DNA of 64,000 nucleotides from Nitrospirota bacterium. GTDB taxonomy: Bacteria > Nitrospirota > UBA9217. This document shows, piece by piece, positions 3,614 through 63,207 of this stretch. The translations under genes and the position numbers were made by a program. The notes under the pieces are model-generated. The model was given only the letters and a program-made list of their open reading frames with translations. It was not told where the DNA came from and did not search any database. The stretch covers positions 192,001 through 256,000 of the forward strand of contig CAVUCU010000001.1 in the NCBI GenBank assembly GCA_963740085.1, written 5' to 3'. Position 1 is the first letter of the stretch; each line of letters opens with the position of its first letter.

Positions 3614-3642
3614 ATTCTTTCTCCTTTTTTCGAGGTTGTGGG

Positions 3643-3866
3643 AATGTGAGGTCTCCTGGCTTAGGACTCCCTACTCGCCGGCCTTCCCATCATGGGTTAG
3701 GTCCATGACAGTGGTTTTGAGAACCGCAGTTGTTCATGGGCGTCATTCGCTCCAAACTTCGAACTCCTGACTCCTCACGCCGCACGCTTCTCATCGGCTT
3801 TCGTTTCCATCACAGTTGCGGGACAGCTGGGGAATCGCACCCCCTTCCGCTGCATCATTCCCGGGG
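3643..3866 (-). promoter_or_regulatory. Cobalamin riboswitch upstream of btuB, with enlarged peripheral insert
   Basis: Minus strand: GGAAGGGGGTGCGATTCCCCAGCTGTCCCGCAACTGTGA...CCACTG...TGGGAAGG...AAGCCAGGAGACCT (B12 box). Confidence 0.9.
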
Positions 3867-3914
3867 AAAATACATACTGCTGTTCCTGGTACTCGACCAT
3901 CAGTCGCATTGATG

Positions 3915-4715
3915 TTAATTCCGTCCGCTCCTCCTTTCTGCGAAGTTACTGTCGTAGCTTATATAGGCGCCATGTGAAGCTGACCGTATCACCTCGACGT
4001 TCACGCCAAAGGCTTTTTTCAGCATGCTTTGCGACAGGACCTCATCGGGCCTGCCGGAGCCGATGAGGTTCCCGTCCTTGATCAGCATCACGTTCTCGAA
4101 CTGGAGAGCCATGTTGATGTCGTGAAGGGCCATGATCACGGCGATGTTCCGTGTCTCCCGCAGGTTCTTGAGAAGCTTCACCAGTTCTATCTGATATTTG
4201 ATATCGAGGTTCGCGAGCGGCTCGTCAAGCAGCAGGAGCCCCGCGCCCTGCACCAGCGTCATGCAGATGAAGGTCCTGCGCCGCTCGCCGCCGGAGAGGT
4301 CCGTGAGGCGCGCATTCGCCTTGTCTCTGAGGCCAACCATGTCCAGGGCCTCGTCAACGCTCAGGGCAGGCGGTATATCATAGGGATAGAGCCCCATGCT
4401 TACCAGTTCCTTGACCGTGAAGGGCACGCTGATATCGAGCGTCTGCGGCAGATAGCTGATCAGTTTTGCGCGGTCCCTGCTGTTCTGCGCAAGGAGGTCC
4501 TTGCCCCATAACCTGAGCAGGCCCGACGATGGCTTCAGGATGCCACAGGCAAGCTTCAGTATCGTGGACTTGCCCGAACCGTTCGCGCCCAAAAGCCCGA
4601 TGAAGCCGCCCTCCGGGATCGAGAACGAGAGATCATGAATGAATGAGCTGTCTTTTTCGTAGGAATAGCGGACACGCTCAAGCTCAAGGATAGGTGGTTT
4701 AGATGCTGAGGACAT
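3915..4715 (-). CDS. btuD: Cobalamin/iron-chelate ABC transporter ATPase (BtuD-like)
   Basis: GANGSGKS Walker A, LSGGE, LLDEP; operon context. Confidence 0.85.
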   Translation of the reverse strand: MSSASKPPILELERVRYSYEKDSSFIHDLSFSIPEGGFIGLLGANGSGKSTILKLACGILKPSSGLLRLWGKDLLAQNSRDRAKLISYLPQTLDISVPFTVKELVSMGLYPYDIPPALSVDEALDMVGLRDKANARLTDLSGGERRRTFICMTLVQGAGLLLLDEPLANLDIKYQIELVKLLKNLRETRNIAVIMALHDINMALQFENVMLIKDGNLIGSGRPDEVLSQSMLKKAFGVNVEVIRSASHGAYISYDSNFAERRSGRN

Positions 4716-5664
4716 TTTTTTTCCTCAAGAGATAAAGAAAATAGGGTGCACCGATGATCGCCGTGACCACCCCTGCGGGAAGCTCCATCGGCGGCAGTAC
4801 GGAGCGGCTGACCAGGTCGGCAATGCACAAAAGAGACCCGCCCCCGAGCGCTGATGCCGGGATCAGCATCCTGCTGTCCGACCCCATGAAGAACCGCATG
4901 ATATGCGGTATAAGCAGGCCGATGAAGCCGATCATCCCGCCAAGCGACACGGAAGCCGCGGTCAATAATCCGACCGAGACGAAGAGTATGAACCGTTCGC
5001 GCTGGGGAGAGAACCCGAGGCTATGGGCGAATTCATCTCCCAGGATGAGCGCGTTCAGGGCCTTGGCCCTCGTGGCGGACAAAACGATACCGACAACAAC
5101 AAAGGCAAGCCCATAGGGTATCCTGGACCACTCGGACATGGAAAGGTCGCCGAAGATCCAGAGCATGGCCCGACGCAGCCCCTCGTCGGTTGAGATGCTC
5201 ATCATCAGCATAAGAAGCGCCGAGAAGAGAAAGCTCAGGCCTACGCCCGCAAGCAGCAGCCGCTCGGGCCAGAGCCCTCCCCGCTTCCATCCCATCACGC
5301 CGACGATGCCGCCGGTGACCAGGGCCCCGACAAAAGCGAGTGCGGGCACGGTGAAGCTGCCGAGAAAGGACATTCCTCCGATGATGCCGAGTGCGGCGGT
5401 AAGCGACGCGCCGCTCGAGATACCGAGAATATAAGGATCGGCGAGCGGATTTCTCAGGATGCCCTGTAGCACCGCACCCGCAGCGCCCAGGGCCATACCC
5501 ATGAGCATCGCCACGAGAACGCGCGGCAGCCTGATCGAGAACAGGATCTCGCGCTCGATCGCGCTCAACGGACCCGGCGTGATGATCTGCGGCCCGAGAA
5601 ATAGCGCACAGGCGAAAATGAACAAAGCCACAAGAATTACTATGAATATCCTTATTTGAGACAT
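4699..5664 (-). CDS. btuC: Cobalamin ABC transporter permease (FecCD/BtuC family)
   Basis: IRLPRVL, QGILRNPLADPYILGISSGA, GMIGFIGLLIPH motifs. Confidence 0.88.
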   Translation of the reverse strand: MSQIRIFIVILVALFIFACALFLGPQIITPGPLSAIEREILFSIRLPRVLVAMLMGMALGAAGAVLQGILRNPLADPYILGISSGASLTAALGIIGGMSFLGSFTVPALAFVGALVTGGIVGVMGWKRGGLWPERLLLAGVGLSFLFSALLMLMMSISTDEGLRRAMLWIFGDLSMSEWSRIPYGLAFVVVGIVLSATRAKALNALILGDEFAHSLGFSPQRERFILFVSVGLLTAASVSLGGMIGFIGLLIPHIMRFFMGSDSRMLIPASALGGGSLLCIADLVSRSVLPPMELPAGVVTAIIGAPYFLYLLRKKNVLSI

Positions 5665-6494
5665 TCAGCCAATTCCTCAATACCCCTGACGACCCGGGGA
5701 GCGAGTCGGTATAAATTGTCGCTCACGTAACAGACCTTGTTATTCCTGACCGCGGGCACCAGGGAGAGTCTCTTCAAAAAGCCCTGCGAGACAGCCCTCA
5801 TGTCCATCCCAGTGGCCTTTCCGATGAACAGAACATCCGGCGCCCGCCGCAGGACCTCTTCGATCGAATACTTCGGATAAGCCGTCGCCGCGCCATGGGC
5901 GATGTTCTCGTAGCCAAGAAGCGCAATTGCATCATCCATGGCAGTACCGGGGCCTGCCACGATCAACGGTTCAGGCCAGACGATGAACAAGACTTTTTTT
6001 GAAGTCCTTGACCCTTGACCCTTGACGCCTGATTCGAATGTCTCGATCGCCCGTTGGATCCCGTCAGCAAGCTTCACCGCCTCTTTATGCACCTCAACCG
6101 CCGCGCCCAACTCCCTGATCCCCTGCGGAAGGTCCTTGAGCCTCCGTGCCGTAAACACGAAGGTCTTGATGTTGAGTGAACGAAGACGTTCAACGAATTC
6201 TTTCGGATTTCCATCAGTCGTGGCCACCACGAGATCAGGTTTAAGCGACACAACTGCCTCGAGCGATGGATTCGACATCCCGCCGATCTTGGGCTTTCTC
6301 TTTGCCTCCTCGGGATAATCGCAGAAGGTCGTGACGCCAACGATCCGATCGCCGAGCCCGAGCGCGAAAAGGATCTCCGTCGTGTTTGGCGCGAGCGAGA
6401 TGATGCGCTGCGGCGGAGCACCCGATCCGCCGGCAAAGACCGGGCGGGAGAGGCCTGCAAGGATTACAAGTATAATGATGAAATATCTCTTCAT
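5652..6494 (-). CDS. btuF: Cobalamin-binding periplasmic protein (BtuF-like)
   Basis: Signal peptide, RIISLAPNTTEILFALG...CDYP; B12 riboswitch upstream. Confidence 0.88.
   Translation of the reverse strand: MKRYFIIILVILAGLSRPVFAGGSGAPPQRIISLAPNTTEILFALGLGDRIVGVTTFCDYPEEAKRKPKIGGMSNPSLEAVVSLKPDLVVATTDGNPKEFVERLRSLNIKTFVFTARRLKDLPQGIRELGAAVEVHKEAVKLADGIQRAIETFESGVKGQGSRTSKKVLFIVWPEPLIVAGPGTAMDDAIALLGYENIAHGAATAYPKYSIEEVLRRAPDVLFIGKATGMDMRAVSQGFLKRLSLVPAVRNNKVCYVSDNLYRLAPRVVRGIEELAECLK
6006..6033. repeat. Heptamer tandem repeat (CCTTGAC)x3 plus one degenerate unit, inside btuF
   Basis: Exact copies at 6006, 6013 and 6020; encodes SGVKGQGSR on the minus strand. Confidence 0.8.
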
Positions 6495-10395: not shown

Positions 10396-11766
10396 CTAAT
10401 TTTTAATGTCCTTGAAAACCGCGGGGTCAAGGTTGTGTTTTTTCAGGAGTGTATAAAAATCTGCCCTGTATTTCCCAGCCATATTTGCCGCACTCGTAAC
10501 ATTTCCTTTCGTCAGCTCGAGAAGACGGACTAAATAGGCCTTCTCGAACGCGTCTCTGGACTGTTTCAGGGGTTTGATCGATTCCTCAGACTCGCGGTTT
10601 ATCGCCGGCAGAATGAGGTCCTCCGTTATCATGTCCTGTGTGGACATAGCGACGGCATACTCTATGGTATTCTCCAGTTCCCGAACATTTCCCGGCCATT
10701 CATGGAGCATCAACTTCTTTAGGGCAATAGGCGTCAAGCCTTTTATCTTTTTTTTCATCTGCTCGCTGAATTTTTTTATGAAGTGCTCCACCAGCAAGGG
10801 TATGTCCTCTCTCCGTTCCCTCAAGGGAGGCAATTCGATAGGAATAACATGGATCCGATAGTAAAGGTCTTCTCGAAACAAACCCAGCTTGACCTGATCC
10901 TCCAGATTTTTATTGGTCGCCACGATAATCCGCACATCGACTTCGAGCTGCTGCTGGCTGCCCACGGGATGGAATTGGCGTTCCTGCAGGACCCGAAGGA
11001 GTTTGGCCTGGATCGAGAGCGGCATGTCACCTATTTCATCAAGAAATATGGTCCCTTTGTGAGCCTGGGAAAAAAGGCCCTTTGAACTCTTGATAGCGCC
11101 GGTAAACGCCCCCTTTTCGTGGCCGAACAGCACGCTCTCAAGGAGTGTCTCGGGAAGGGCCGCACAGTTGACCGCTACAAAAGCCTTGTCCTTTCTCTCG
11201 CTTGCAAGATGGATGGCCTGAGCGATGGCCTCCTTGCCGGTGCCGCTGTCTCCATGAATGTAAACAGTAGACTCGGTGTTCGCTATCCGGGATACCGACT
11301 CCAACACCATCCGCATCTTTTCGCTTTTTGCTATGATGTTTTTAAAGTCATAGCGTTCGGACAGCAGCCCCCGTAGCCTGTTGATCTCCGTGGTAAGCTT
11401 TGCGTTCTCCAATGCCCGAGCTATTTGCAGGGCCAGTTCACGGGCGTCGAACGGCTTCGTAAGATAGGTGTACGCCCCCCGTTTTATCGCCTCAACGGCG
11501 CTCTCAATGCTCCCGTGGGCGGTGAGGATGATGACGGGCAGGTCGGGAATCGTAAGGCGAAGTTCCTCCATAAGAGATATCCCGTCCTGATGAACTAGCT
11601 GGAGGTCAACGACGGCAAGGTCAAATACATGACCGATCACGGACTGTTTTGCTTCCTCTTCGTCCTGGGCTGCCGTTACCTCATAGTCCAGGGACTCGAG
11701 CCTCATCTTGATCAATTCAAGGAGGTTACGGTCATCGTCTACGATCAGTAATTTTCCTGAAGGCAT
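10396..11766 (-). CDS. Sigma-54-dependent response regulator (GlrR/QseF-like)
   Basis: Receiver domain, GDSGTGKE, GAFTGA, LFREDLYYRI, WPGNVRELEN; C-terminal AGKYRADFYTLLKKH HTH resembles GlrR. Confidence 0.92.
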   Translation of the reverse strand: MPSGKLLIVDDDRNLLELIKMRLESLDYEVTAAQDEEEAKQSVIGHVFDLAVVDLQLVHQDGISLMEELRLTIPDLPVIILTAHGSIESAVEAIKRGAYTYLTKPFDARELALQIARALENAKLTTEINRLRGLLSERYDFKNIIAKSEKMRMVLESVSRIANTESTVYIHGDSGTGKEAIAQAIHLASERKDKAFVAVNCAALPETLLESVLFGHEKGAFTGAIKSSKGLFSQAHKGTIFLDEIGDMPLSIQAKLLRVLQERQFHPVGSQQQLEVDVRIIVATNKNLEDQVKLGLFREDLYYRIHVIPIELPPLRERREDIPLLVEHFIKKFSEQMKKKIKGLTPIALKKLMLHEWPGNVRELENTIEYAVAMSTQDMITEDLILPAINRESEESIKPLKQSRDAFEKAYLVRLLELTKGNVTSAANMAGKYRADFYTLLKKHNLDPAVFKDIKN

Positions 11767-27310: not shown

Positions 27311-28082
27311 ATGGCCGGAGCGACGATCTGGAAAGGAAACATTCATTTTGGAGACACTGACATTCCGGTGAAGCTGCATACAGCGGTGAGAGAAGAGCGA
27401 ATTCAGTTTCACCTCCTGCACAAGCGAGACCAGGTGCGACTGCGTCAGCAAATGGTCTGTGCTTATGAAAAAAAACCGGTGCCGGCGGAAGAACAGTCCA
27501 AGGGGTTTGAAGTGGAGGAAGGGAAGTATATCATCGTCGATCAGGAGGAACTCGAGCAAACCACTCCTGAAAGCAGCCGGATGATCGAGGTCCACGAATT
27601 CGTCAAACCCTCACAAATCGACCCCATCTTCCTTGACCGGGTGTATTACCTCGAGCCGGATATGCAGGGAAAGGGATATAACGCGCTGCTCGGGGCCTTG
27701 AAGCAGATGGATGTTGCGGGAATCTGTTCCTGGACCATGAGAAAACGGACCTATATCGGGGCTATTCAGGCGATCGGGAATATCCTTCGTCTGATTACGT
27801 TGCGCCATGCCGACGAAGTGATCGCGGTTGAATCTCTTGACCCTGCAGGACGTTCCTCTGTCAGAAAAAGAATTGAAGATCGGGGTCGACTTGATCAATC
27901 AGCTGGCCGCTCCTTTTGAGCCTCGAAAATTCGAAAATGAGCATCAGAAGAAGCTGCAGGATATGATAGAAAAAAAGGCCCGCGGGGAGCACATTGCGAT
28001 CGTCGCCCCCAGACGACTTAAACCCACGGAACCGGACCAGTTGCAGCAGGTGCTTGAAGCGAGCCTGAAAAAGGCCGCCTGA
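27311..28082 (+). pseudogene. ku: NHEJ Ku protein, first copy, with +1 frameshift
   Basis: IWKGNIHFG..IPVKLH..IDPIFLDRVYYLEP; deleting one C of CCC at 27841-27843 joins both ORFs into a 256-aa Ku ending LQQVLEASLKKAA. Confidence 0.85.
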
Positions 28083-28137
28083 GGGAAGGAAGAGTCCTTT
28101 TAAGACGGATTCAAACGGATTAAACAGGAGGCATACG

Positions 28138-28923
28138 ATGGCTGTTCAGGGTATATGGAGCGGGACTATCAGTTTCAGCCTGGTGGCGATTCCAGTACGG
28201 TTGGTTACCGCGATCGAGCCCGGTCGCGTCTCTTTTCACCTGCTCCACAGCAGGGATTTCTCTCCCCTGTCCCGAAGAATGTTTTGTCCTAAAGAAGGGA
28301 CCATGGTCCCCCCGGATGAGATCGTCAGGGGATACGAGATCGTGCCTGATAAATACATTCTGATGACTGACGAGGAACTGGAATCCGTTTCGCCGGAGCG
28401 GAGCCGCACGATCGAGATCATCGAGTTCATCGATATGAAGGAAGTGGACCCGATCTACTATGATCACCCCTACTACCTCGTGCCTTCGAAAGGAGGCGAA
28501 AAAGCCTACCAGCTGCTGGTGGAGGTGATGCGCCGGACAAACAAGGCCGGTCTCGCAAAATTCGTGCTGGCTGAACGCGAGTATCTGGTGGCGGTCAAAA
28601 GCAGGGACGGAGCGCTGGCACTGACCACGCTCCATTACAGCGACGAAATAGTTTCCGATAGGGACATCCACGTGGAACAAGGGAAGGTCGAAGCTGAAGA
28701 GGAACGCCGGATAAAAACAAACATAGAGAAGATGATCGAAGACTTTAAACCGGCGAAATATGCCGACGAACGCCGGAAAGGGATCTTGGCCCTTCTGGAG
28801 GCGAAGGCGAAAGAAAAGGCCCCGGTGGCGGCCCCGGCCATAGAGGAAGAAGAGGGAGAAGGACCTGCTGATCTGGTCGCCGCACTGGAGGAAAGCATGC
28901 GGAAAGTGAAGGAGAACAGGTGA
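28138..28923 (+). CDS. ku: NHEJ Ku protein, second copy
   Basis: IWSGTISFSLVAIPVRL, VDPIYYDHPYYLVP, DLVAALEESM. Confidence 0.93.
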   Translation: MAVQGIWSGTISFSLVAIPVRLVTAIEPGRVSFHLLHSRDFSPLSRRMFCPKEGTMVPPDEIVRGYEIVPDKYILMTDEELESVSPERSRTIEIIEFIDMKEVDPIYYDHPYYLVPSKGGEKAYQLLVEVMRRTNKAGLAKFVLAEREYLVAVKSRDGALALTTLHYSDEIVSDRDIHVEQGKVEAEEERRIKTNIEKMIEDFKPAKYADERRKGILALLEAKAKEKAPVAAPAIEEEEGEGPADLVAALEESMRKVKENR

Positions 28924-29825
28924 GCCGAACATTTGTGGACATGGCGGGGATCAGACTCCCGCTGTCGAACCTTGAAAAGGACCTTTATCCCTCCTATGGT
29001 TTTACAAAGGCCCAGATCCTGGAATATTACCGCGGGATAGCACCGTTCATGCTGCCCCATTTGAAAGACCGGGCGTTGACCTTTAAGCGCTATCCCGAGG
29101 GAGTGGAAAAGGACTTCTTTTTCGAGAAACGCTGTCCCGGTCACCGCCCTTTCTGGGTGAAAACTGCTGAGATCCCCCAGCATGACGGAGAGCGGATGAC
29201 GGTCTGTCTGGTCAACGATCTGGAAACGCTGATATGGGCGGAAAACCTTGCTTCTCTGGAACTCCATGTGCCGCTGGCCAGGGCCGGTTCCCCGGGAACT
29301 CCGGATTCCATGGTCTTCGACCTGGATCCCGGCGATCAGGCAAACATTTTTGATTGTGCGCGGGTGGCGCTGGTGCTTCGGGATCTGCTCTCACGGCTGG
29401 GACTCGTCACCTATGTCAAAACCTCCGGCAAGAAGGGTCTCCATGTATATGTCCCCCTGAACCGCAGGGAGACGACCTTCGAGGATACCAAGACATTTTC
29501 AAAGACCGTGGCAGGGATCATGCAAAAACATTATCCCGACCTGGTGACCGCAAAAATGTCGAAAACAGAGCGAAAAGCGAAGGTCTTTATCAACTGGTCT
29601 CAAAATGATGCTTCGAAAACGATGGTCTGCGTTTATTCCCTGCGTGCCCGGGAAAAACCGATCGTGTCGTTTCCGCTTGAATGGACGGAACTGCAAAATT
29701 TGTCCGGGCCTGCTGACCCGGATAAACTGCAGGTCATGTATTCGGACGCCGTGAGCAGGGCAAAGACAAAAGGCGACCTTTTTCAAGAAATGCTCTCGAA
29801 AGAGCAGAAGCTGCCGCATTTATGA
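28920..29825 (+). CDS. ligD: Stand-alone LigD polymerase (primase-polymerase) domain
   Basis: LSNLEKDLYP, KRYPEGV..FFEKR, VFDLDPG, KTSGKKGLHVYVP, YSLRA; GTGA overlap with ku. Confidence 0.9.
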   Translation: MSRTFVDMAGIRLPLSNLEKDLYPSYGFTKAQILEYYRGIAPFMLPHLKDRALTFKRYPEGVEKDFFFEKRCPGHRPFWVKTAEIPQHDGERMTVCLVNDLETLIWAENLASLELHVPLARAGSPGTPDSMVFDLDPGDQANIFDCARVALVLRDLLSRLGLVTYVKTSGKKGLHVYVPLNRRETTFEDTKTFSKTVAGIMQKHYPDLVTAKMSKTERKAKVFINWSQNDASKTMVCVYSLRAREKPIVSFPLEWTELQNLSGPADPDKLQVMYSDAVSRAKTKGDLFQEMLSKEQKLPHL

Positions 29826-29830
29826 AAATG

Positions 29831-29930
29831 AATCGCCAAATAACGAAGCTCGAAATCCTAAACCATATCAGAATTCGAATATTTGAGTTTTGAGCTTGTT
29901 CAGGGTTTAGAAATTCGAACTTAGCATTTT
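29831..29930. repeat. Heptad-periodic inverted repeat element
   Basis: TCGAAATCCTAAACC versus GGTTTAGAAATTCGA (13/15 complementary); 7-bp register in both arms. Confidence 0.65.
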
Positions 29931-29941
29931 CAGGAACTGAC

Positions 29942-31570
29942 ATGGGATTAACTGAATACAAATCGAAACGGGAATTCGAGAAAACACCCGAACCGAAACC
30001 GGGTCTTCAGTCTCAGGGGAACCGTCTTGTGTTTGTCGTTCATAAGCACGCGGCCCGGGCCCTTCATTATGACCTCAGGCTGGAACTGGATGGGGTGCTT
30101 AAGAGCTGGGCCGTACCGAAGGGTCCCTCGCTTGACCCTGCCGTGAAAAGGCTCGCGGTTATGGTCGAAGACCACCCGTTCGAGTACAAGGATTTTGAGG
30201 GCGTTATTCCGGAGAACAATTATGGCGCTGGAAGCGTCATCATCTGGGACAAGGGCTTTTATCATCACCCTTCCACCAGAGATGAGAACGAAAGCAATAG
30301 GCTTCTTCATGAGGGCTTGAAAAAAGGCGACATGAAGTTCGTCCTCGAAGGAGAAAAACTTCACGGTGAATTCGCGCTGGTGAAAACGGCCAGGGACGGG
30401 AAGTCGTGGCTGCTTCTGAAGAAAAAAGATGGGAATGCGGCCAAAGAGGAAATCCTCAAGGAGAACCGTTCCGTGGTGTCTCATAAGACTCTGGAGGAAG
30501 TACTCGGAGCCGATAAGCATAAATCGTTCAGACAAAAAAAGTCAAACCAGATCCGTCTTCACGAGGCATTGGAAACCGAAGACCTGAAGGATGCGCCGGT
30601 CAAACCGATGCCGCACGGAATAAAACCGATGCTTGCTACCCTGACAAAGGAACCGTTCGATCATCCCGATTGGATCTTTGAGGTGAAATGGGACGGGTAC
30701 CGGGCTGTTGCTGAGATCAGTGACAACGGCGTTTCGCTTTACTCCCGGAACGGGATCTCGCTCGCCAAAAAGTTTGCCCCCGTTGCAGACTCTCTGCGGA
30801 AATTCGGATCTGACGCTGTCTTGGACGGGGAAATCGTTGTCGTAGATGACCAGGGACGCGCCGATTTTCAGGCGCTTCAGCACTACCAGGGCTCGGGAAG
30901 CGGTCATTTGGTCTACTACGTTTTCGATCTCCTCTACCTCCGGGGGCATGATCTGACGGGTCTCCCCCTGATGAGAAGGAAGGAAGTCCTGGAAAAGGTA
31001 CTCCCCTCTTCCTCAAAGATAAAATTCAGCGGTCATGTAGAGAAGGAAGGCGTCTTGTTTTACAACGTCTCCAAGGAAAAAGGCCTGGAAGGGATCGTCG
31101 CCAAACATTCTCAAAGCACATACGAAACAGGCAAAAGGACCCGGCAGTGGCTGAAGGTGAAGACGCGGCCTACCCAGGAGGGCGTGATCGCGGGATTCAC
31201 GGAACCGGGGGGCGGCAGAAAATATTTCGGTGCCCTTGTCCTGGGTGCATTCGATGGAGACAACTTTGTGTACATCGGCAATGTAGGAAGCGGATTCAGG
31301 GAGAAGGATTTAAAGAACATCCGCGAACAATTGGAACCGCTGGTCCAGAAGGAATGCCCCTTTTCCGCTGAACCGGAGACAAATGCGCCGGTCACGTGGG
31401 TAAAGCCGGAGCTGGTCTGCGAGGTTACGTTGACCGGCTGGACCGAGGATAGCGTGATGAGGCAGCCTGCGTTCATACGGCTGCGTGAGGATAAAACAGC
31501 CGGCGAGGTGGTTCGTGAAAAAGAATCATTTCAACGCAGAGACGCCGGGAAGCAGCAAAAAGAAGATTAA
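29942..31570 (+). CDS. ligD: LigD phosphoesterase + ATP-dependent ligase domains
   Basis: PE: HAARALHYDLRLE..SWAVPKGP..VEDHP; ligase: EVKWDGYR, LDGEIV, EGIVAK, WLKVK; no polymerase domain. Confidence 0.93.
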   Translation: MGLTEYKSKREFEKTPEPKPGLQSQGNRLVFVVHKHAARALHYDLRLELDGVLKSWAVPKGPSLDPAVKRLAVMVEDHPFEYKDFEGVIPENNYGAGSVIIWDKGFYHHPSTRDENESNRLLHEGLKKGDMKFVLEGEKLHGEFALVKTARDGKSWLLLKKKDGNAAKEEILKENRSVVSHKTLEEVLGADKHKSFRQKKSNQIRLHEALETEDLKDAPVKPMPHGIKPMLATLTKEPFDHPDWIFEVKWDGYRAVAEISDNGVSLYSRNGISLAKKFAPVADSLRKFGSDAVLDGEIVVVDDQGRADFQALQHYQGSGSGHLVYYVFDLLYLRGHDLTGLPLMRRKEVLEKVLPSSSKIKFSGHVEKEGVLFYNVSKEKGLEGIVAKHSQSTYETGKRTRQWLKVKTRPTQEGVIAGFTEPGGGRKYFGALVLGAFDGDNFVYIGNVGSGFREKDLKNIREQLEPLVQKECPFSAEPETNAPVTWVKPELVCEVTLTGWTEDSVMRQPAFIRLREDKTAGEVVREKESFQRRDAGKQQKED

Positions 31571-36188: not shown

Positions 36189-38261
36189 TTACCACGATCT
36201 TCCAGAGTGAAGCTCATGACAGGTCCCTGTGCAGGTACCGTGCCCTGTCCCGTCGCGGGTAAAGTTCATTGTGTTGCCCGGATCGGTAAACTGAATGACG
36301 ACATTGGCATCGCCATGGGCGGTTCTGTTGCTCGGGCCATGACTGGTATTTCCCGTGCCATTGGATCCGTGACAGAGAGAACAGGTAAAGCTGCTATGGG
36401 TGCTATGCGTTCCGGCTACATCCGGGAATGCAGTACCGCTTGGCCTCCCGCCGGTGCTGGCGGACCCGTGGCACGATCCGCAACTGTTGCCGGGACTGGC
36501 CTTGGTGTGGCATCCGCGGCAATCTGGCGGCGTTCCAGTGGCAACAGGATACGTCCCCACGACGCTTCCATTCGCATGGCAACTGCTGGTTACGCAGCCG
36601 GAGAACGGCGCTACTCCCGCTGCCGATAAATGGGCGGAACCGGGGAACGGGAAGGTATGGCCTGAGACGTCGATCACCCCGTTCACGTGCTTCGTGGGAT
36701 CGTCGAAACCGGTATTAGTTGCATTGACGTGCGTGTGACATGTTTTACAGGTTGTGCTCGACGTAAAACCGGTATGAGCGGCATTGGCCGGAGGAAAACC
36801 ATGACACGTCCCGCAACCGGCTGCCGCCAGATAAGTTGTCTGGCTCCAGATAGGCGACTTGTTGGTGCCGCCGACAAGGGTCGCGCCATGACAGTAGACA
36901 TTGGTGCACTGTAAGGTCGTTTCATCGAATGCGGGACTTGCCCCGCCGGTTTGCGCTAATGCACCGAACACGATGGCCCCTGCCTGCCTGCTTGTGGTGT
37001 GGTTCCTGGCGCGGAGAAAATGGTCGAGGGTGACCGAGCCGAGCCCGTTGTGGCAAGCACTGCAGGTGTCGGCCACATTGAGGCCTGCGTGGCCCGGATG
37101 AGCAAGGGCGATATTAGGATAGATAGTCCCGCTGGGGCTCGCGCTGTGGCAGGAAGAGCAGTTTTTCAAGGTGGTCGGGAGACCGCTCTGGTGGCAGAAC
37201 GTGCAGCCCGTGGCGCCGTTTGCTGCTCCGACGCCATCCAGGTTCGCGCCGTGGCAGCGGTTGCAGGCATCGAAACCGGAGGGGCTGGCCTTGCAGTGGA
37301 GATACCACGGGGTTCCGATGGGATTGATCGGCGTTATCGCGCCGAATGCGGCGGGGATCTGAAGGACCCGCGGATGGGCCGCAAGCGGGGCATGGCATAC
37401 CTCACACCCTGTGTTGCCGAGGGTTGCATCGACGAGATTTCCGAGCTGGACATTGAATCGCGGGTTGCTCCCCGGCCCTCCGAAACTATTGTCGGCATGG
37501 CACTGCTGGCAATACGTCAGATTTGATTTTGCCACCGCGCCGTGGTTGCTCGGCTGCGCCCAGCCGGCCGGATGCCCCAACGGTCCATGACAAAGAGTGC
37601 TGTTGAAACAGCCCGGGTTACCCGTTTGGTACGTGGTGATGATCGGAGTTCTCAGGTTGGCCCCGCGACTGTGGCAGCGGGCGCAGGCCGCGGCGTTCGA
37701 CCCGGCTGCATCGTCAACGGTATCGGTATGGGTCGGCGCGGGATACGTCCGCCAGGGAAGCGGCGAATGAGGCGCCCCCACCGGTGCGCCGTTCGTCACA
37801 TGGCAGGGGCCTGTGGCCCTGCCCGCGGTAAAGCAGCTCACGTTGGCAACACCGCCGTTGAAATCGTCGCCGTGACAGAGCTGGCAACTGGAGAAACCGC
37901 TGTCTGCCCCGGGCTGCGATTTGGCGACAGAGCCGTGAAAGTTCGGGGCGGGGGTGGCCGGGTCTCGCCACCCTGCCGGGTGCCCGATAGGTCCGGTATC
38001 ATGACATGCCTGTCCGTTGAACTGAGGGCTAAAACAGCTGACCTTGGAGATACCTCCCTTCAGGTCGCTGCCGTGGCACTCATAGCACTGGCTATGATTG
38101 CTTACATAAGACACTCGGTGATACACGATCCAATTGGCGACGTGCTTCCCGGATTCGCTCAGGACCGGAGTATTGCTGTTGGCCTTGCTGCTGCACCCCC
38201 AAGCCATGCCTACTAAAGCGATCAACGCAACAACTTTAGAGAAAACGTTCAATATGCGCAT
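36189..38261 (-). CDS. Multiheme c-type cytochrome lipoprotein (CxxCH/CxxxxCH family), about 20 motifs
   Basis: Lipobox AWGC; 14 CxxCH plus 6 longer CxnCH motifs counted by eye; ATG 38261 with AAGGGAG RBS. Confidence 0.92.
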   Translation of the reverse strand: MRILNVFSKVVALIALVGMAWGCSSKANSNTPVLSESGKHVANWIVYHRVSYVSNHSQCYECHGSDLKGGISKVSCFSPQFNGQACHDTGPIGHPAGWRDPATPAPNFHGSVAKSQPGADSGFSSCQLCHGDDFNGGVANVSCFTAGRATGPCHVTNGAPVGAPHSPLPWRTYPAPTHTDTVDDAAGSNAAACARCHSRGANLRTPIITTYQTGNPGCFNSTLCHGPLGHPAGWAQPSNHGAVAKSNLTYCQQCHADNSFGGPGSNPRFNVQLGNLVDATLGNTGCEVCHAPLAAHPRVLQIPAAFGAITPINPIGTPWYLHCKASPSGFDACNRCHGANLDGVGAANGATGCTFCHQSGLPTTLKNCSSCHSASPSGTIYPNIALAHPGHAGLNVADTCSACHNGLGSVTLDHFLRARNHTTSRQAGAIVFGALAQTGGASPAFDETTLQCTNVYCHGATLVGGTNKSPIWSQTTYLAAAGCGTCHGFPPANAAHTGFTSSTTCKTCHTHVNATNTGFDDPTKHVNGVIDVSGHTFPFPGSAHLSAAGVAPFSGCVTSSCHANGSVVGTYPVATGTPPDCRGCHTKASPGNSCGSCHGSASTGGRPSGTAFPDVAGTHSTHSSFTCSLCHGSNGTGNTSHGPSNRTAHGDANVVIQFTDPGNTMNFTRDGTGHGTCTGTCHELHSGRSW

Positions 38262-38383
38262 GACTATCTCTCCCTTATTTTTGGTATCAAAATCGATGCA
38301 GCTCGTCGTTCCTGAATCGTATGTGGTTAGGATACCTCGTTTTCGGGTCAATTTCTCAAAAAAAACGCCATTCTTAATAAAGC

Positions 38384-41795: not shown

Positions 41796-43715
41796 TCATA
41801 CCGGTCTTGCTTCTCCCCCGAACATTTCCACAATCTTCTTAACCAGGGCGGGCAGCGACGGGTCACGTGCTCCCATGAGCAGGACGCAGTCTTCCGCTTT
41901 CGCCTCGGCCTTTAATCTGGCCAACAGTTCATCGCGATCACCGACCGCTTGCGCAATGAATGCAACGGTGCCGAGGCCCTGAACAATATCGTCCGAGGAA
42001 ATATTTTTATGCGCCGTGCCCCCGGCGTAATAGATCGGCAGGAGATAGAGCGCGTCATTTTTTTTAAATGCCGTTCGAAAGGTTGCGATGTATTCATCCT
42101 TTAAGAAGCGCGTCGGACCGAACCCATGAGGCTGGTACACGGCAATGACGCGTGCGGAAAGGCCCCGCGCGGCGCGGACGACAGCCGCTATCTTTGCCGG
42201 ATTATGCGCAAAGTCGTCGACCACATGCACGTTCTGCTTTGTGCTGGTCAGGGAAAAACGCCGGGCAACTCCCTCATAATTCCTTACCGCATCGGCAAGC
42301 GCCGCTTCTTCGCATCCGAAATGCTCGCACACACAAAGCGCCGCACACAGGTTTTCAAGATTGTGCTTGCCGGGAAGCGGCAGATGATATTCGATGTTAC
42401 TCTTAAAAAGCTTGACCGAAGTCGGCAAGAGCTGTTCACGATCGGGCCGCCACGAGCTTAAACCATTGCGGCCGAAGCGTACGGTTGCAGGAAAGGACGC
42501 AAGGGCCGGATCATCGGCATTTGAAGCCGTCCAGGGAGATTGTGCAGCGAGCGTCTCGAAAAGCGACCTTATCTCGTCAACGCCTTTATGGTCCTTGGAG
42601 ATATTCAGGAACACCGCTGCCTCCGGACGGTATTTGACGAGCGTTCCGTCGCTTTCGTCCGCCTCCACCACCAGGATATCTGAGCCGCCGCTCCAGGCAT
42701 TGCCGATAAGCCCCTGCCTTTCGAGCCTGCGCAGGCCCGCACCGCTTATGAGTGAGGGCGATTTTCCGCACGCGGTCAGGAATTCGAATATCATCGCGGT
42801 CACCGTCGATTTGCCGCTGGTGCCCGCGACCGCAATGGTCTTTTTTGTCGCGATGATCGCGGCAAGCAGATCGGAGCGATGGACGATGGGAAGACCGCAA
42901 CTGCGCGCGGCAGCGATGTCGGGATTTGATTCTTCTATCGCTGTTGAGATGCAGACCACATCGGTATCCGCACCCACACCCGAACCGTCTTGACGAACGA
43001 TGGTACACCCCAGGCCTTCAAGCGATTGCCGGATCGAGGCGGTATCCTCACTTGCATGGAAGCGATCGGAACCCGAGACCCCGATCCCCTGAAAGCGCAG
43101 GTATTGCGCGAGCGCGCTCATGCCGCTGCCGAAGATGCCGGTAAAATGCACGTTGCGGCACTGGTGTTCATTGATAACAATTGGTAGCGGATCGATGTAA
43201 ACGAGCGTGCCCTCATTCACCGCATCATATAGGCGAATGACATCGTGATTTCGAAGGCATACGCACCCGTGCGACAGCGGAGTGCCAACCATGTCCTCAC
43301 GACCGGTGCCGTGTATATAGATGTAACGCTCGTAGGTGTCCACCCCGGCGCCCTTATTGATCCCCTCCTCAAGGCCCTCGAGCCACAGAATGCGGGTCAG
43401 GATCAGGTTGTCTCCATTCTGGCTGTGGTCCCAGTCCATGCCCTGATCCTCGCGGTCTTTGAAAACGCGACCAGCAGGCGCTCCCGCCCCGAACTTCTCC
43501 CTGATCCGATGAATACCAAGAGGCGTTTTAAGCGAGTTCTCCCGATTGCCGTTGCCAAAACGGGAGGTGGAGGCATCATACTGCTCGACAATGGTGTCGT
43601 TCATGCAGACAAGGAGCGTTTGCGTCTCAATGGAGACCACGAGAAAGAGCTCTCGCGGGTCAACAAATAACCTTCGTAATTTTTCGTAAATGCCGCGTAA
43701 TCGAACTTTTTCCAT
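41796..43715 (-). CDS. YkuD (L,D-transpeptidase/carboxypeptidase) domain fused to a MurC/Mpl-like Mur ligase
   Basis: N-terminal KTPLG..ILTRILWLEGLE..YIYIHGT..SHGCV; C-terminal HFTGIFGSGMSALA, AGTSGKST, EADESDG, DDFAHNP, YQPHG; no signal peptide. Confidence 0.88.
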   Translation of the reverse strand: MEKVRLRGIYEKLRRLFVDPRELFLVVSIETQTLLVCMNDTIVEQYDASTSRFGNGNRENSLKTPLGIHRIREKFGAGAPAGRVFKDREDQGMDWDHSQNGDNLILTRILWLEGLEEGINKGAGVDTYERYIYIHGTGREDMVGTPLSHGCVCLRNHDVIRLYDAVNEGTLVYIDPLPIVINEHQCRNVHFTGIFGSGMSALAQYLRFQGIGVSGSDRFHASEDTASIRQSLEGLGCTIVRQDGSGVGADTDVVCISTAIEESNPDIAAARSCGLPIVHRSDLLAAIIATKKTIAVAGTSGKSTVTAMIFEFLTACGKSPSLISGAGLRRLERQGLIGNAWSGGSDILVVEADESDGTLVKYRPEAAVFLNISKDHKGVDEIRSLFETLAAQSPWTASNADDPALASFPATVRFGRNGLSSWRPDREQLLPTSVKLFKSNIEYHLPLPGKHNLENLCAALCVCEHFGCEEAALADAVRNYEGVARRFSLTSTKQNVHVVDDFAHNPAKIAAVVRAARGLSARVIAVYQPHGFGPTRFLKDEYIATFRTAFKKNDALYLLPIYYAGGTAHKNISSDDIVQGLGTVAFIAQAVGDRDELLARLKAEAKAEDCVLLMGARDPSLPALVKKIVEMFGGEARPV

Positions 43716-43906
43716 AAAGAAATTATTCTACCTGTTCAGCTTAAGATGTCAGCAAAATACTGTATTTCGGAGAAAACGACAAGAAAAAAAAGACGGGGCA
43801 TCAATAACCTTCGCCCTTGACAATCAGTTGTGCATCCGTAATAATGCTGTCAGTCATGCTTGCTCCCTGCCAATTAAAGAGAAGCAAATCTTGCAGCGGA
43901 AAATAA

Positions 43907-57006: not shown

Positions 57007-57996
57007 TCAGAACGCAAGATCAGGATATGCGAACTGGCCTTGAAAACCGGCATCACTGCCGGCGAAGCTTTGATTCATGGTGTGATCCGACTTTCCGAGA
57101 ACATCTCTTCCGGGGAGAGGCACAAGCGGCTCGAAGGAACCCGGTGATGATCTGTCCGGTTGCAATCTTATCCCGATATCAGCGAGTCTCAGCGCACTTT
57201 TCCACAGGCGGCTGCGCGAGGGGGCTCCGAGAACCGCCGTATATATGAGACCCTTTTCGGTGTCCATGGCGCCCACAAAACAATGCCTCGCGTTACAGGT
57301 AAAGCCGGTCTTTCCGCCTATCATGTCAGTTCGGGACCACAGCAGATTGTCCGTATTCGAGAGATATAATTCCCTGCCTGCCGCTGTTTTGACCATCCAT
57401 CCTTTTTTGCCGAGGATCTCCCGGATAAGCGGGTACATAAGAGCCCTTTTCAGAATGATCGTCAGATCCCGGGCCGTTGTATATTGTCTGCCTTTGGGCA
57501 GGCCGGAAGCGGTCTCGAAGTGGGTATCATTGGCACCAATATCCTTTGCCTTCTGATTCATCATTGCGACAAACGCATTCTCTGAACCGCCCGCCCCCTC
57601 GGCAAGGGCTACGGCGGCGGCATTGATGGATCTCATGAGTGCCAGATGGAGGAGGTCTGAAACCGTCAGGACGTCGCCTGCCTTAAGCCTGGGCTTTCCG
57701 GAACGGGCTGCCTGAGCCCTCTTGCTCACGGTCACGCTGGTTGACGGATCCAGACGATCAAGGGCCACCATGGCGGTCACGAGTTTTACTGTGCTGGCGG
57801 GCGGAAGCTTGGCCGAAGGGTATTTCTCTGAAAGTACCGAATCGTTCTCATCAACCACGATCCACGCCTTTGCCGCAATGCCCTTCCGCGAAAAAGAAAA
57901 GGCGGGCTGCACCGCTGTCAGCAGAAGGACCGCGAACACCAGGTAAAAAACCACTCGCTTCAAAAGGGATCTTGGTAAGGATACGGATCGATACAT
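57007..57996 (-). CDS. D-alanyl-D-alanine carboxypeptidase (peptidase S11)
   Basis: PASTVK (SxxK), SIN (SxN), GKTG. Confidence 0.9.
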   Translation of the reverse strand: MYRSVSLPRSLLKRVVFYLVFAVLLLTAVQPAFSFSRKGIAAKAWIVVDENDSVLSEKYPSAKLPPASTVKLVTAMVALDRLDPSTSVTVSKRAQAARSGKPRLKAGDVLTVSDLLHLALMRSINAAAVALAEGAGGSENAFVAMMNQKAKDIGANDTHFETASGLPKGRQYTTARDLTIILKRALMYPLIREILGKKGWMVKTAAGRELYLSNTDNLLWSRTDMIGGKTGFTCNARHCFVGAMDTEKGLIYTAVLGAPSRSRLWKSALRLADIGIRLQPDRSSPGSFEPLVPLPGRDVLGKSDHTMNQSFAGSDAGFQGQFAYPDLAF

Positions 57997-60595: not shown

Positions 60596-62179
60596 ATGGA
60601 AACCAACTTTTACAATACTCCGGGCAAATACCCCGGCATCTTCGGCTGGATCTTCACGACCGACCATAAAAGGATCGGGCTCCTGTACCTCGGCTCGACG
60701 CTCGCATTCTTCATCGTCGGCGCGTGCCTCGGGCTCACGATGCGTCTCGAACTCATCCGGTCCGGCATGCACTTTTTCAGCGCCCAGACATACAATGCCC
60801 TGTTCACGCTTCACGGCGTGATCATGATCTTCCTTTTCATCATTCCCGGCATTCCCGCTTCGCTCGGGAACTTCATCCTGCCGCTCCAGATCGGAGCGCG
60901 CGATGTTGCATTCCCCCGGATCAATATCCTGACCTGGTGGCTGTATATCATCGGCGGAGCGCTTGCCGTCACATCCCTTTTTACCGGCGGCGGCCCGCCC
61001 GACACAGGCTGGACCTTTTACATCCCGTACAGCATCCGCACTGGCACGAACGTGTCGCTCGCAGTATTCGGCGTGTTCCTGATCGGAATGTCGTCAACGC
61101 TCACCGGTATGAACTTCCTGACCACGATCCACCGGCTCCGGGCGCCCGGCATGACCTGGCGAAGAATGACGCTGTTCACCTGGTCCATCTACGCCACGTC
61201 GTGGATCCAGCTCCTGGCCACTCCGGTCCTGGCCATCACACTGCTCTTGATCATCATCGAGCGCTTTTTCGGCGTGGGCTTCTTCGACCCGGCAAAGGGA
61301 GGTGACCCGATCCTCTTTGAGCACATGTTCTGGATCTACTCCCACCCGGCGGTCTATATCATGATCCTGCCGGCGATGGGCGCCGTCACCGACATCATCC
61401 CGGTGTTCACCCGAAGGAATATCTTCGGATACAAGTTCATAGCCGCGTCGAGCCTGGCCATCGCCTTCGTCGGTTACCTCGTCTGGGGTCACCATATGTT
61501 CACCAGCGGCATGAGCGACACGGCGAGGGTCATCTTCTCGCTTCTCACATTCCTCGTTGCCGTGCCCAGCGGGGTGAAGGTCTTCAACTGGATCGCGAGC
61601 CTCTACAAGGGATCGATCAGGATGGACGCGCCGCTGCTCTACACACTCGGGTTCATTTTTCTGTTTTCCATCGGCGGCCTGACCGGCCTCGTGCAGGGAG
61701 CCCTTGCCACGAACCTCCACGTCCACGGCACCTACTTCATCGTGGGACATTTCCACTATGTGATGTTCGGCGGCACGGCCATGGGGTTCTTCGCAGGCCT
61801 CCACTACTGGTTTCCAAAAATTACCGGCAGGCTTTATGAAGACCATCTGGCAAAGCTCGCCTGGGTTCTTCTGTTCATCGGCTTCAATATGCTCTACTTT
61901 TCCATGTTCGTTCTTGGCTGGGAAGGGATGCCCAGGCGGTATTACGACTATCTTCCGAAATTTAACGCCCCCAACCTGGTCGCCACCATCGGATCCTGGA
62001 TTCTGGCCATGGGGCTGATTATTATGTTCTATAACCTTATCCACTCGCTCTTTACGGGCAGAGAGGCCGGGGACAATCCCTGGGAAGCGGCGTCGCTCGA
62101 ATGGCGGACCACATCACCGCCGCCCACGGAAAATTTCGCTCAGCAGCCCGTGGTCACGAAGGGACCGTATGAGTTTTAA
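60596..62179 (+). CDS. ctaD: Cytochrome c oxidase subunit I, type A2
   Basis: TDHKRIG, LHGVIM, GWTFY, FWIYSHPAVY (YS, A2 type), WGHHMF, HFHYV, GMPRRY. Confidence 0.97.
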   Translation: METNFYNTPGKYPGIFGWIFTTDHKRIGLLYLGSTLAFFIVGACLGLTMRLELIRSGMHFFSAQTYNALFTLHGVIMIFLFIIPGIPASLGNFILPLQIGARDVAFPRINILTWWLYIIGGALAVTSLFTGGGPPDTGWTFYIPYSIRTGTNVSLAVFGVFLIGMSSTLTGMNFLTTIHRLRAPGMTWRRMTLFTWSIYATSWIQLLATPVLAITLLLIIIERFFGVGFFDPAKGGDPILFEHMFWIYSHPAVYIMILPAMGAVTDIIPVFTRRNIFGYKFIAASSLAIAFVGYLVWGHHMFTSGMSDTARVIFSLLTFLVAVPSGVKVFNWIASLYKGSIRMDAPLLYTLGFIFLFSIGGLTGLVQGALATNLHVHGTYFIVGHFHYVMFGGTAMGFFAGLHYWFPKITGRLYEDHLAKLAWVLLFIGFNMLYFSMFVLGWEGMPRRYYDYLPKFNAPNLVATIGSWILAMGLIIMFYNLIHSLFTGREAGDNPWEAASLEWRTTSPPPTENFAQQPVVTKGPYEF

Positions 62180-62188
62180 TTATATGCA

Positions 62189-62250
62189 TGGAGCAGAGAG
62201 CAGGGGGCAGCGTACTGACTGCAGCTGCAATTTACTTCATGCTCTCTGCA
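62189..62250. repeat. Short heptad-periodic inverted repeat
   Basis: TGGAGCA-GAGAGCA-GGGGGCA ... TACTTCA-TGCTCTC-TGC. Confidence 0.55.
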
Positions 62251-62266
62251 GTGACTTTTACCGCTT

Positions 62267-62878
62267 ATGAACGAAACCGTACACATGGAACACCGCGATT
62301 ACGCCGGCGCAAAACTCGGCATGTGGCTCTTCCTGTTCACGGAGATCCTGCTCTTCGGGGGCATGTTCCTGGTCTACGCGGAATACCGTCAAGTGAACAC
62401 CGCCGATTTCCACGAAGCCGGCAGCGAGATGAACGTCTTTATCGGGGCGGCAAACACGATCATCCTCCTGACCAGCAGCCTGACCATGGCCCTGGCGATC
62501 TCGTCGATCAAAAAAGGGCTGAAGGTTCGCTCCCTCACGCTCCAGGCAGCCACCATACTCCTCGGCCTCGGCTTCCTGGTCAACAAGTATTTCGAATGGA
62601 GCGACCATATCCGCAAAGGTTTCTATCCCGACTCGCCCGATCTTCTGGCCATGAGCCACGGCAAGATCCTGTTCTTCGGTCTTTACTATGTCATGACCGG
62701 CATCCATGCGCTGCATGTCATCATCGGCTTATCCGTCATCGCGTTCATGTTCGCGTTGACGCTACGGGACAGGATATCGAGCTCCGATTACGTGAAACTG
62801 GAGAACACGGGACTTTTCTGGCATATTGTGGACATCATCTGGATATACCTGTTCCCGCTATTTTACCTGATCCGGTAA
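62267..62878 (+). CDS. ctaE: Cytochrome c oxidase subunit III
   Basis: GMWLFLFTEILLFGG, NTIILLTSS, MTGIHALHV, FWHIVDIIW. Confidence 0.95.
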   Translation: MNETVHMEHRDYAGAKLGMWLFLFTEILLFGGMFLVYAEYRQVNTADFHEAGSEMNVFIGAANTIILLTSSLTMALAISSIKKGLKVRSLTLQAATILLGLGFLVNKYFEWSDHIRKGFYPDSPDLLAMSHGKILFFGLYYVMTGIHALHVIIGLSVIAFMFALTLRDRISSSDYVKLENTGLFWHIVDIIWIYLFPLFYLIR

Positions 62879-62922
62879 GGGTTGCTTGTCCGGCGGAGCA
62901 ATCCGGGAGGACCAAGGACTGT

Positions 62923-63207
62923 ATGGAAGAGAGCAAGGGCCACTTCGTAGCAACAAAGACCTTCGTTTTCGTTTGGATCGCCCTGATCTGCCTGACCGGG
63001 CTTACCATAAAGGCCGCGCAGATGCAACTGGGCGGGTGGAGCATGGTCGCCAATATCGCCATCGCCTCGGTCAAGGCGAGCCTCGTGCTCTGGTTCTTCA
63101 TGCACCTGAAGTACGAAAAAAGACTGTTTAAGCTGCTCCTTTTCGTACCCTTGATTACGATCTCGATCATTATCGGACTCACGTTTGTCGATATCTGGTA
63201 CCGATAA
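62923..63207 (+). CDS. ctaF: Cytochrome c oxidase subunit IV
   Basis: VWIALICLTGLT..IASVKASLVLWFFMHLKYE; real start at ATG 62923 inside the long track ORF. Confidence 0.9.
   Translation: MEESKGHFVATKTFVFVWIALICLTGLTIKAAQMQLGGWSMVANIAIASVKASLVLWFFMHLKYEKRLFKLLLFVPLITISIIIGLTFVDIWYR

Follow-up and report, generated by a model that had tools for sequence, protein, structure and literature searches.

A conserved fusion of a YkuD domain and a MurC-like ligase in Nitrospirota: a candidate two-activity enzyme for recycling peptidoglycan peptides

The closest described counterparts of the protein reported here come from peptidoglycan recycling and from fusions of Mur enzymes. ElsL of Acinetobacter baumannii is a characterised cytoplasmic L,D-carboxypeptidase of the YkuD type, and the accessible part of its description states that when it is lost, the ligase Mpl loads untrimmed tetrapeptide, with toxic effect (PMC8649774). 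Untrimmed tetrapeptide in the precursor pool is likewise toxic in ldcA mutants of Escherichia coli. For LdcA, the only function given in the portions of the literature available is the cytoplasmic trimming of wall tetrapeptide during recycling. Mur enzymes are described as chimeras of the kinds MurE-MurF, MurC-Ddl, MurC-MurB, MurG-MurC and MurD-FtsW (PMC10214165); in the available part of that survey all are biosynthetic and no peptidase fusion is among them. Here we describe P0001, a protein of 639 amino acids (aa) encoded in a 64,000-nt stretch of a Nitrospirota bacterium genome (contig CAVUCU010000001.1; the whole stretch is called the window below). As in the described chimeras, a Mur ligase is joined to another wall enzyme, in this case an ElsL-like YkuD domain.

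We assign a probability of about 0.55 to the reading that P0001 is a cytoplasmic, two-activity enzyme that recycles peptidoglycan peptides by trimming and then ligating them. The YkuD domain would act as an L,D-carboxypeptidase that trims imported tetrapeptide to tripeptide, and the MurC-derived domain would ligate the tripeptide to UDP-N-acetylmuramic acid (UDP-MurNAc), doing the job of Mpl without belonging to the Mpl family; MurF would then be able to add D-Ala-D-Ala. The reverse order is equally compatible, with tetrapeptide being ligated and UDP-MurNAc-tetrapeptide trimmed afterwards, and both orders would give UDP-MurNAc-tripeptide. Coupling by fusion or within a tight operon would mean that the ligase is never made without the carboxypeptidase, so that untrimmed tetrapeptide is kept from the precursor pool. 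The parts of this reading differ in strength. From the sequence, a cytoplasmic carboxypeptidase role for the YkuD domain and the use of UDP-MurNAc and ATP by the ligase are each more likely than the reading as a whole, and its weak link is the peptide, rather than L-Ala, as the ligase's substrate. We infer both substrates, the direction of flow, and the standing of the ligase as a paralogue beside a canonical MurC.

A preliminary description of this DNA had proposed a single open reading frame (ORF) holding an intact YkuD domain and a complete three-domain Mur ligase, with neither signal peptide nor transmembrane helix and with the motifs IHGT..SHGC, GTSGKST, DDFAHNP and QPHGFGP. All of this was borne out, with each motif at its given place and with the strand, which had been left unstated, being the minus strand. 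The features of the gene are as follows.

41796..43715, minus strand: whole coding sequence of P0001, 639 aa, YkuD plus MurC-like ligase fusion in one uninterrupted ORF
43713-43715 and 41796-41798, minus strand: ATG start codon and stop codon of P0001, respectively
43194..43643, minus strand: YkuD (ElsL-like) domain, aa 25-174 (Pfam PF03734, 71.5 bits; NCBIfam ElsL, 135.3 bits)
43263..43316, minus strand: catalytic segment IHGT...SHGC, aa 134-151, with His135 and Cys151 (motif match)
43152..43193, minus strand: 14-residue linker between Pfam domains, aa 175-188, with high per-residue model confidence (pLDDT) throughout
42843..43151, minus strand: Mur ligase N-terminal (UDP-sugar-binding) domain, aa 189-291 (Pfam PF01225, 46.5 bits)
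42327..42830, minus strand: Mur ligase middle (ATP-binding) domain, aa 296-463 (Pfam PF08245, 52.5 bits)
42804-42824, minus strand: P-loop GTSGKST, aa 298-304, with its Lys invariant in 143/143 subfamily sequences
41865..42263, minus strand: Mur ligase C-terminal (amino-acid/peptide-binding) domain, aa 485-617 (Pfam PF02875, 57.9 bits)
42198..42218, minus strand: DDFAHNP, aa 500-506, aligned with D344-P350 of Haemophilus influenzae MurC
42114..42134, minus strand: QPHGFGP, aa 528-534, aligned with Q374-R380 of H. influenzae MurC
43725..43752, minus strand: sigma-70-like promoter match, CTGACA, 16-nt spacer, TAGAAT (consensus match only)

The domain matches are far beyond chance; the YkuD match, for instance, spans profile positions 4-146 of 146 with an E value of 1.4e-19 and exceeds its Pfam cut-off of 23.4 bits threefold. 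No signal peptide or transmembrane helix was found in P0001, whose highest 19-residue Kyte-Doolittle mean is 1.3 and falls within the first YkuD strands, and no S66 peptidase domain was matched by Pfam. An AlphaFold2 model built from a 106-row alignment is confident over the whole length (pLDDT 93.7, predicted TM-score 0.90). The ligase part of this model superimposes on the H. influenzae MurC complexes 1p31 and 1p3d with target-normalised TM-scores of 0.85-0.87, and on the Psychrobacter arcticus Mpl structure 3hn7 with a TM-score of 0.67. The -10 hexamer of the promoter-like match stops 10 nt short of the ATG, and the letters in between hold nothing that resembles a Shine-Dalgarno sequence (43716-43760, minus strand); the mRNA may be leaderless or nearly so. 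The promoter search gave 5 sigma-70-like sites, against 2.3 +/- 1.8 in shuffled sequence.

The fusion of YkuD domain and Mur ligase is conserved and is not an artefact of this assembly. A protein search of a collection clustered at 90% identity returned, as the best 120 matches including the query, proteins that carry all four Pfam domains in every case, at 80-100% identity and mostly 636-644 aa in length, drawn from JGI, NCBI, ENA and Logan records. DDFAHNP is present in 120/120 of these, QPHGF[GAS]PT in 118 and SHGC[VI] in 116, and the named ones are from Nitrospirota metagenome-assembled genomes (MAGs), titled either 'L,D-transpeptidase family protein' or 'UDP-N-acetylmuramate--alanine ligase'. 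The same single ORF occurs in four named Nitrospirota MAG loci at 80-83% identity to P0001, and look-ups in a protein atlas returned the same architecture along with loose taxon hints. The fusion is thus not unique to this assembly, an outcome that would have told against the preliminary description. That a chimeric assembly or a frameshift joined two separate genes is accordingly extremely improbable, the model being confident across the entire fusion as well. In six loci the two parts do occur as distinct ORFs that are read in different frames and overlap at their ends, and single-base errors could interconvert the two forms; the 120 matches and the four Nitrospirota loci nevertheless refute the artefact for practical purposes. 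The fusion is confined to few lineages, since the best 150 representatives at 50% identity include only three fused proteins, namely P0121, P0123 and P0125, the last of them truncated.

The YkuD half had been said to resemble ElsL. This holds insofar as the NCBIfam ElsL model (NF040925) matches aa 26-175 over profile positions 9-159 of 164, nearly its full length, and it fails insofar as the score of 135.3 bits is half the curated cut-off of 270. Models of periplasmic L,D-transpeptidases covered only the catalytic motif and its surroundings, some 45 residues, and scored about 22 bits. The seven separate YkuD ORFs found in the genome loci described below, and three of the fused forms (L004, L006 and L053), scored 118-138 bits on the ElsL model. 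In all 42 alignment rows that hold the YkuD domain, H135, G136, S148, G150 and C151 are invariant, as are many other positions. A length-restricted search retrieved 3969 short proteins matching the YkuD half at E values up to 1e-5, many of them stand-alone YkuD proteins of 172-180 aa and 50-62% identity, with names from Fibrobacter, Chitinivibrionales, Syntrophorhabdales and Deltaproteobacteria MAGs. Because P0001 lacks a signal peptide or transmembrane helix and its YkuD domain shares a chain with a ligase that depends on ATP and a UDP-sugar, we place this domain in the cytoplasm, where there is no sacculus to cross-link. P0001 is thus like ElsL in having a small YkuD domain with catalytic His and Cys, no export signal and a predicted cytoplasmic role in converting tetrapeptide to tripeptide. 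The two differ in that ElsL is free and has a separate Mpl as its partner, whereas the domain of P0001 is bound covalently to a ligase.

The ligase half belongs to what is, on its sequence features, a distinct, large and probably unrecognised MurC-like subfamily. The other representatives at 50% identity are stand-alone proteins of about 450-470 aa that are 33-58% identical to the ligase half of P0001. Three of them, P0128 (562 aa), P0137 (569 aa) and P0147 (573 aa), carry extensions or insertions of about 100 residues without a Pfam match, which may be further fusion partners or mis-called starts. An alignment of 143 subfamily sequences of at least 420 aa (eight shorter ones were dropped) has in common the motifs QDGSG, DD[FY]AHNP, QPHG[FY]xP, YYAGGT and GARD, which are absent from E. 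coli MurC and Mpl. P0001 has the three Mur domains, the P-loop and the Mg- and ATP-binding residues of the Mur ligase superfamily; E351, E354 and H376 (P0001 numbering) are, like the P-loop Lys, invariant in all 143, and from sequence and model the ligase looks catalytically competent. The curated MurC model TIGR01082 nevertheless gave P0001 279.8 bits, under its cut-off of 335.1, and 31 of 35 representatives and 23 of 24 proteins from the genome loci (54/59 scanned) also fall below it. On the Mpl model TIGR01081, which has a cut-off of 388.7, P0001 scored 99 bits, spread over two stretches, and all scanned members lie far under that cut-off.

Relative to MurC (H. influenzae 1p3d and E. coli 2f00), its closest relative in both sequence and fold, the P0001 ligase retains the ATP, Mg and P-loop residues and the UDP-binding N-terminal domain but differs in the subfamily's own motifs and in the amino-acid pocket. 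Five residues of H. influenzae MurC, Tyr346, His348, His376, Arg377 and Arg380, are named in the accessible part of the source as presumed binders of the amino acid to be added (PMC3060825); they lie in the segments DDYGHHP and QPHRYSR. Their equivalents in P0001 are Phe502, His504, His530, Gly531 and Pro534, so that the two histidines are kept, Tyr346 is replaced by Phe, and both arginines are lost from the L-Ala-binding set; His349 of MurC is also replaced, by Asn. Of the 143 subfamily sequences, 141 have Gly in the Arg377 column and 141 have Asn in the His349 column, while the Arg380 column holds Pro in 140, Ala in two and Arg in none. All solved MurCs among the displayed alignments retain Arg380. 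In E. coli Mpl the two arginine columns hold Ser and Met. A pocket without a clamp for a free alpha-carboxylate fits a substrate in which the carboxyl of L-Ala is already in a peptide bond, and the altered pocket would by this inference point to a peptide substrate.

The likeness to Mpl is one of proposed reaction (UDP-MurNAc, tripeptide and ATP, as predicted from the sequence), of three-domain build, of the DDFAH motif (DDFAHHP in Mpl) and of the absence of the two MurC arginines. It is not one of family. P0001 is 26% identical to E. coli Mpl, b4233, and the insert (S/T)AFFDKRSK, given as Mpl-specific in the available part of its source (PMC3060825), is present in E. coli Mpl but gapped in P0001 and in the 13 other non-E. 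coli rows of the alignment. The suggestion of the preliminary description that P0001 combines LdcA and Mpl activities therefore stands only as to job: if Mpl-like in what it does, the ligase would be an analogue derived separately from MurC, not a member of the Mpl family.

To place the ligase in its genomic settings, we scanned genomes with the subfamily alignment (first row P0127) and the pattern DD[FY]AHNPxK, which gave at least 599 stretches and at least 597 confirmed relatives. The best 80 of these were analysed as loci, a sample that is biased to P0127-like sequences and defined by the subfamily motif; it includes, going by record titles, 41 Bacteroidota, 17 Elusimicrobiota, seven Fibrobacterota, four Nitrospirota, three Eisenbacteria, two Krumholzibacteriia, one Armatimonadota and one genome titled Bifidobacteriales. 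All locus ORFs of at least 60 aa were searched with LdcA and the division and cell wall (dcw) proteins of E. coli, with the S66 part of the protein P0264 and with the YkuD part of P0001. An ElsL-like YkuD domain is fused to the ligase in six loci (L004, L006, L041, L053, L065 and L068), is encoded directly upstream on the same strand, overlapping or abutting, in six others (L005, L007, L027, L028, L030 and L034), and lies 5.4 kb upstream in one (L021). The linked loci include members of Nitrospirota, Fibrobacterota, Eisenbacteria and Krumholzibacteriia.

In a FastTree phylogeny of 99 ligase sequences, with E. coli MurC and Mpl as the only outgroups and L077 dropped because its ligase is split in two ORFs, the YkuD-linked genes form two well-supported clades (0.995 and 1.0). 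Fused forms are nested among adjacent ones, L007 grouping with L004 and L006, L005 with P0125, and L034 lying outside P0122 and the Nitrospirota clade. This nesting suggests, on sequence grounds, an ancestral ykuD-ligase gene pair with no fewer than three later fusions. Where the two are adjacent, the ligase domain lies in another frame, within about 15-85 nt after the YkuD stop codon; in five of the six loci the only candidate ligase starts sit before or over that stop, and three loci have in common the stretch ...GTTGTCATCATCTGA. Such junctions could reflect coupled translation of the two genes or a site of recoding, or else a fused gene into which the assembly has brought single-base errors. 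A predicted complex of the separate YkuD and ligase proteins of L005 gave a score of 0.00 and a mark of 0.32, values that speak neither for nor against binding.

A second kind of L,D-carboxypeptidase is joined to the same type of ligase. P0264 (742 aa) carries both LdcA domains, Peptidase_S66 and S66C, and among the 120 matches listed for it three are ligase-LdcA fusions (P0264 itself, P0391 at 85% identity and P0392 at 45%, the last named 'LD-carboxypeptidase [Alphaproteobacteria bacterium]'), the rest being stand-alone ligases. These proteins resemble P0001 in uniting a ligase of this subfamily with an L,D-carboxypeptidase and in the two-step chemistry that they would perform, but their peptidase is of an unrelated fold and sits at the C-terminus rather than the N-terminus, and they are rare and bear names from Alphaproteobacteria MAGs. 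That two unrelated L,D-carboxypeptidases are found on one ligase subfamily argues that the ligase uses their product, and this is the strongest argument for the proposed function. The trim-and-ligate logic of the preliminary description thus gains from the loss of the MurC arginines, from the linkage to YkuD in several phyla and from the independent S66 fusion.

Several observations weigh against this reading, and many of them speak for an alternative in which the ligase is a genuine UDP-MurNAc:L-alanine ligase, a variant or 'type 2' MurC that serves as a housekeeping enzyme or a second isozyme, with the YkuD domain only co-localising recycling or precursor proofreading, for example by trimming UDP-MurNAc-tetrapeptide. 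We regard this alternative as unlikely, at roughly one chance in four. The ligase is nearer MurC than Mpl on both measures given above, bits and TM-score, and five of the 59 scanned members (four representatives and one locus protein) do reach the MurC cut-off. Nor is Arg377 constant in true MurC, two of the solved enzymes having Leu or Thr there. No carboxypeptidase was found in the flanks of 67 of the 80 loci, including all those of Bacteroidota and Elusimicrobiota. In gut Elusimicrobiaceae (L014, L015, L016, L019, L022, L026, L031, L050 and relatives) the ligase gene ends an asd-dapA-dapB run and faces murD-murE in L014, L015 and L031 and murD alone in L050, a context that fits de novo synthesis, and so a true MurC role, as well; these copies have QPHAF[AT]S[IV] in place of QPHGFxP, and a variant YYPGGT. 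Mur chimeras of non-consecutive steps, MurC-Ddl and MurG-MurC, exist in the surveyed set (PMC10214165, as far as available), and a divergent Frankia MurC2 is, in the accessible part of its report, the sole MurC of some strains (PMC7231273). Against a MurC role stand the absence of Arg380 throughout the subfamily, the 54 members under the MurC cut-off, and the repeated coupling to two unrelated L,D-carboxypeptidases, which is easier to understand if the ligase consumes their product. None of the 80 loci adjoins murG, ddl, ftsQ, ftsA or ftsZ, so that the subfamily, unlike MurC, is without dcw context in 80/80; ftsW, mraY, a second MurC-like gene and an S66 gene were likewise found in none of the flanks. 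The lack of dcw context is weak evidence, as murC itself often lies outside the dcw cluster according to the part of the source available (PMC8871954). The 41 Bacteroidota genes would be extra copies, given that Bacteroidota presumably keep a canonical murC in their dcw cluster.

It is improbable, we think, that the pair acts on something other than recycled stem peptide, such as another amino acid or dipeptide placed on a UDP-sugar acid, or a fourth residue swapped by YkuD for a non-canonical D-amino acid. YkuD enzymes can perform exchange as well as hydrolysis, and the amino-acid pocket of the ligase is unlike that of both MurC and Mpl. The surroundings also lend this alternative some weight at the expense of a recycling role: neither ampG, nagZ, ampD nor any other recycling gene was seen near P0001 among the scanned window ORFs, and Pfam found nothing wall-related among 36 ORFs flanking the fused gene in the six fused loci. 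P0001 also shares no neighbour with the same gene in the four Nitrospirota MAG loci. All-against-all clustering of the ORFs of the 80 loci likewise gave no recycling genes; recurrent neighbours were lineage-specific (such as hutI and FTCD in Chitinophagaceae, which are unrelated), and the top clusters consisted of ORFs antisense to the ligase. Nonetheless, the entire N-terminal domain of the ligase is MurC-like, as is its glycine-rich motif for UDP binding, the ElsL model is the best YkuD match, and the alternative partner, LdcA/S66, is known, in the literature portions available, only for trimming tetrapeptide in recycling.

Returning to recycling as the preferred function, we would tentatively, at somewhat less than even odds, extend it to the ligase at large. 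The ligase half may represent a second family of murein-peptide ligases that evolved independently from MurC and spread over several phyla, namely Nitrospirota, Fibrobacterota, Eisenbacteria, Krumholzibacteriia, Elusimicrobiota, Bacteroidota and some Alphaproteobacteria MAGs. On that reading the ligase would have been welded repeatedly to whichever L,D-carboxypeptidase was available, of the ElsL or LdcA type, and would so be unable to load toxic tetrapeptide.

The gene's setting within the window was surveyed among 61 ORFs of at least 90 aa, of which 56 were scanned with NCBIfam and 16 also with Pfam. The location outside any dcw or mur operon, noted before, was upheld within the 64-kb window: apart from P0001, no mur, fts or ddl gene was found among the 56 NCBIfam-scanned ORFs, and the sole other wall gene there encodes an S11 DD-peptidase (57007-57996, minus strand). 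On the 3' side, on the same strand, follow a quinone oxidoreductase, an ORF of 111 aa that matched no family, an old yellow enzyme-type flavoenzyme and a multihaem cytochrome; divergently on the 5' side lie a pilin-like lectin-domain protein and trxC. With no wall genes nearby and no recurring neighbours, the fused gene behaves as an isolated unit.

Some further genes were recorded in the window and in the loci. A split non-homologous end-joining (NHEJ) set occupies 27311-31570 on the plus strand, comprising Ku (27311-27919), a LigD polymerase domain that stands alone (28920-29825) and a LigD phosphoesterase plus ligase (29942-31570); L041, too, has a Ku gene in the vicinity of its fused gene. 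A multihaem cytochrome c of 720 aa that bears a CxxxxCH/CxxCH domain is encoded at 36189-38351 (minus strand), and a caa3-type oxidase, with subunit I and a fused subunit bearing a subunit IV domain, at 60596-63207 (plus strand); together with the names of the best matches these suggest a Nitrospirota-like respiratory generalist. Genes for a complete BtuB-type TonB-dependent receptor and a BtuF, BtuC and BtuD-like ABC transporter lie at 1757-6494 (minus strand), and a TonB gene at 972-1646. In L068, a Peptidase_S51 gene (dipeptidase E/cyanophycinase family; 10432-11178, plus strand) overlaps the end of the fused gene; neither the window nor the remaining three Nitrospirota loci showed such a gene. 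Some 1.7 kb away from the subfamily ligase, loci of Flavobacteriales and other Bacteroidota have an ORF of about 816 aa in which alanine racemase domains come after a Mur_ligase_M domain (L029, 5821-8271, minus strand; also L035, L037 and L062). It matches a MurF'-Alr chimera described, in the available part of the report, in 2026 (PMC13726279).

The preliminary description knew of no characterised protein with this architecture, and full-text searches of the open literature, which does not extend to subscription journals and supplements, found no published description of a YkuD-Mur ligase fusion or of the MurC-like subfamily. The paper on MurB/C of V. spinosum contained nothing that bears on either. 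The words 'YkuD', 'transpeptidase' and 'Mpl' do not occur in the text of the Mur-chimera survey (PMC10214165), nor do 'fused' and 'Mur ligase' in the ElsL paper (PMC8649774). Databases already carry the architecture, under automatic names. The chemistries are thus known, the fusion is uncharacterised, and the ligase subfamily is probably unrecognised.

To our knowledge, peptide recycling through LdcA or ElsL together with Mpl is known almost only from Proteobacteria. If the subfamily is a peptide ligase, a gap in recycling would close for several large phyla, genes that now carry the automatic names 'MurC' or 'L,D-transpeptidase family protein' would have to be given new ones, and the fusion would be a compact model of how the loading of uncross-linkable tetrapeptide is avoided. 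Should a second ligase family indeed exist, direct re-use of tripeptide would be far wider than the distribution of Mpl suggests. The subfamily can also be viewed as a natural experiment in Mur ligase specificity, in which two arginines were lost and a Gly-x-x-Pro was gained. If it is a true MurC instead, it would present a variant L-Ala site of relevance to the design of MurC inhibitors and to automatic annotation. In the organisms that carry it, the fusion may mark a second route for cell-wall recycling.

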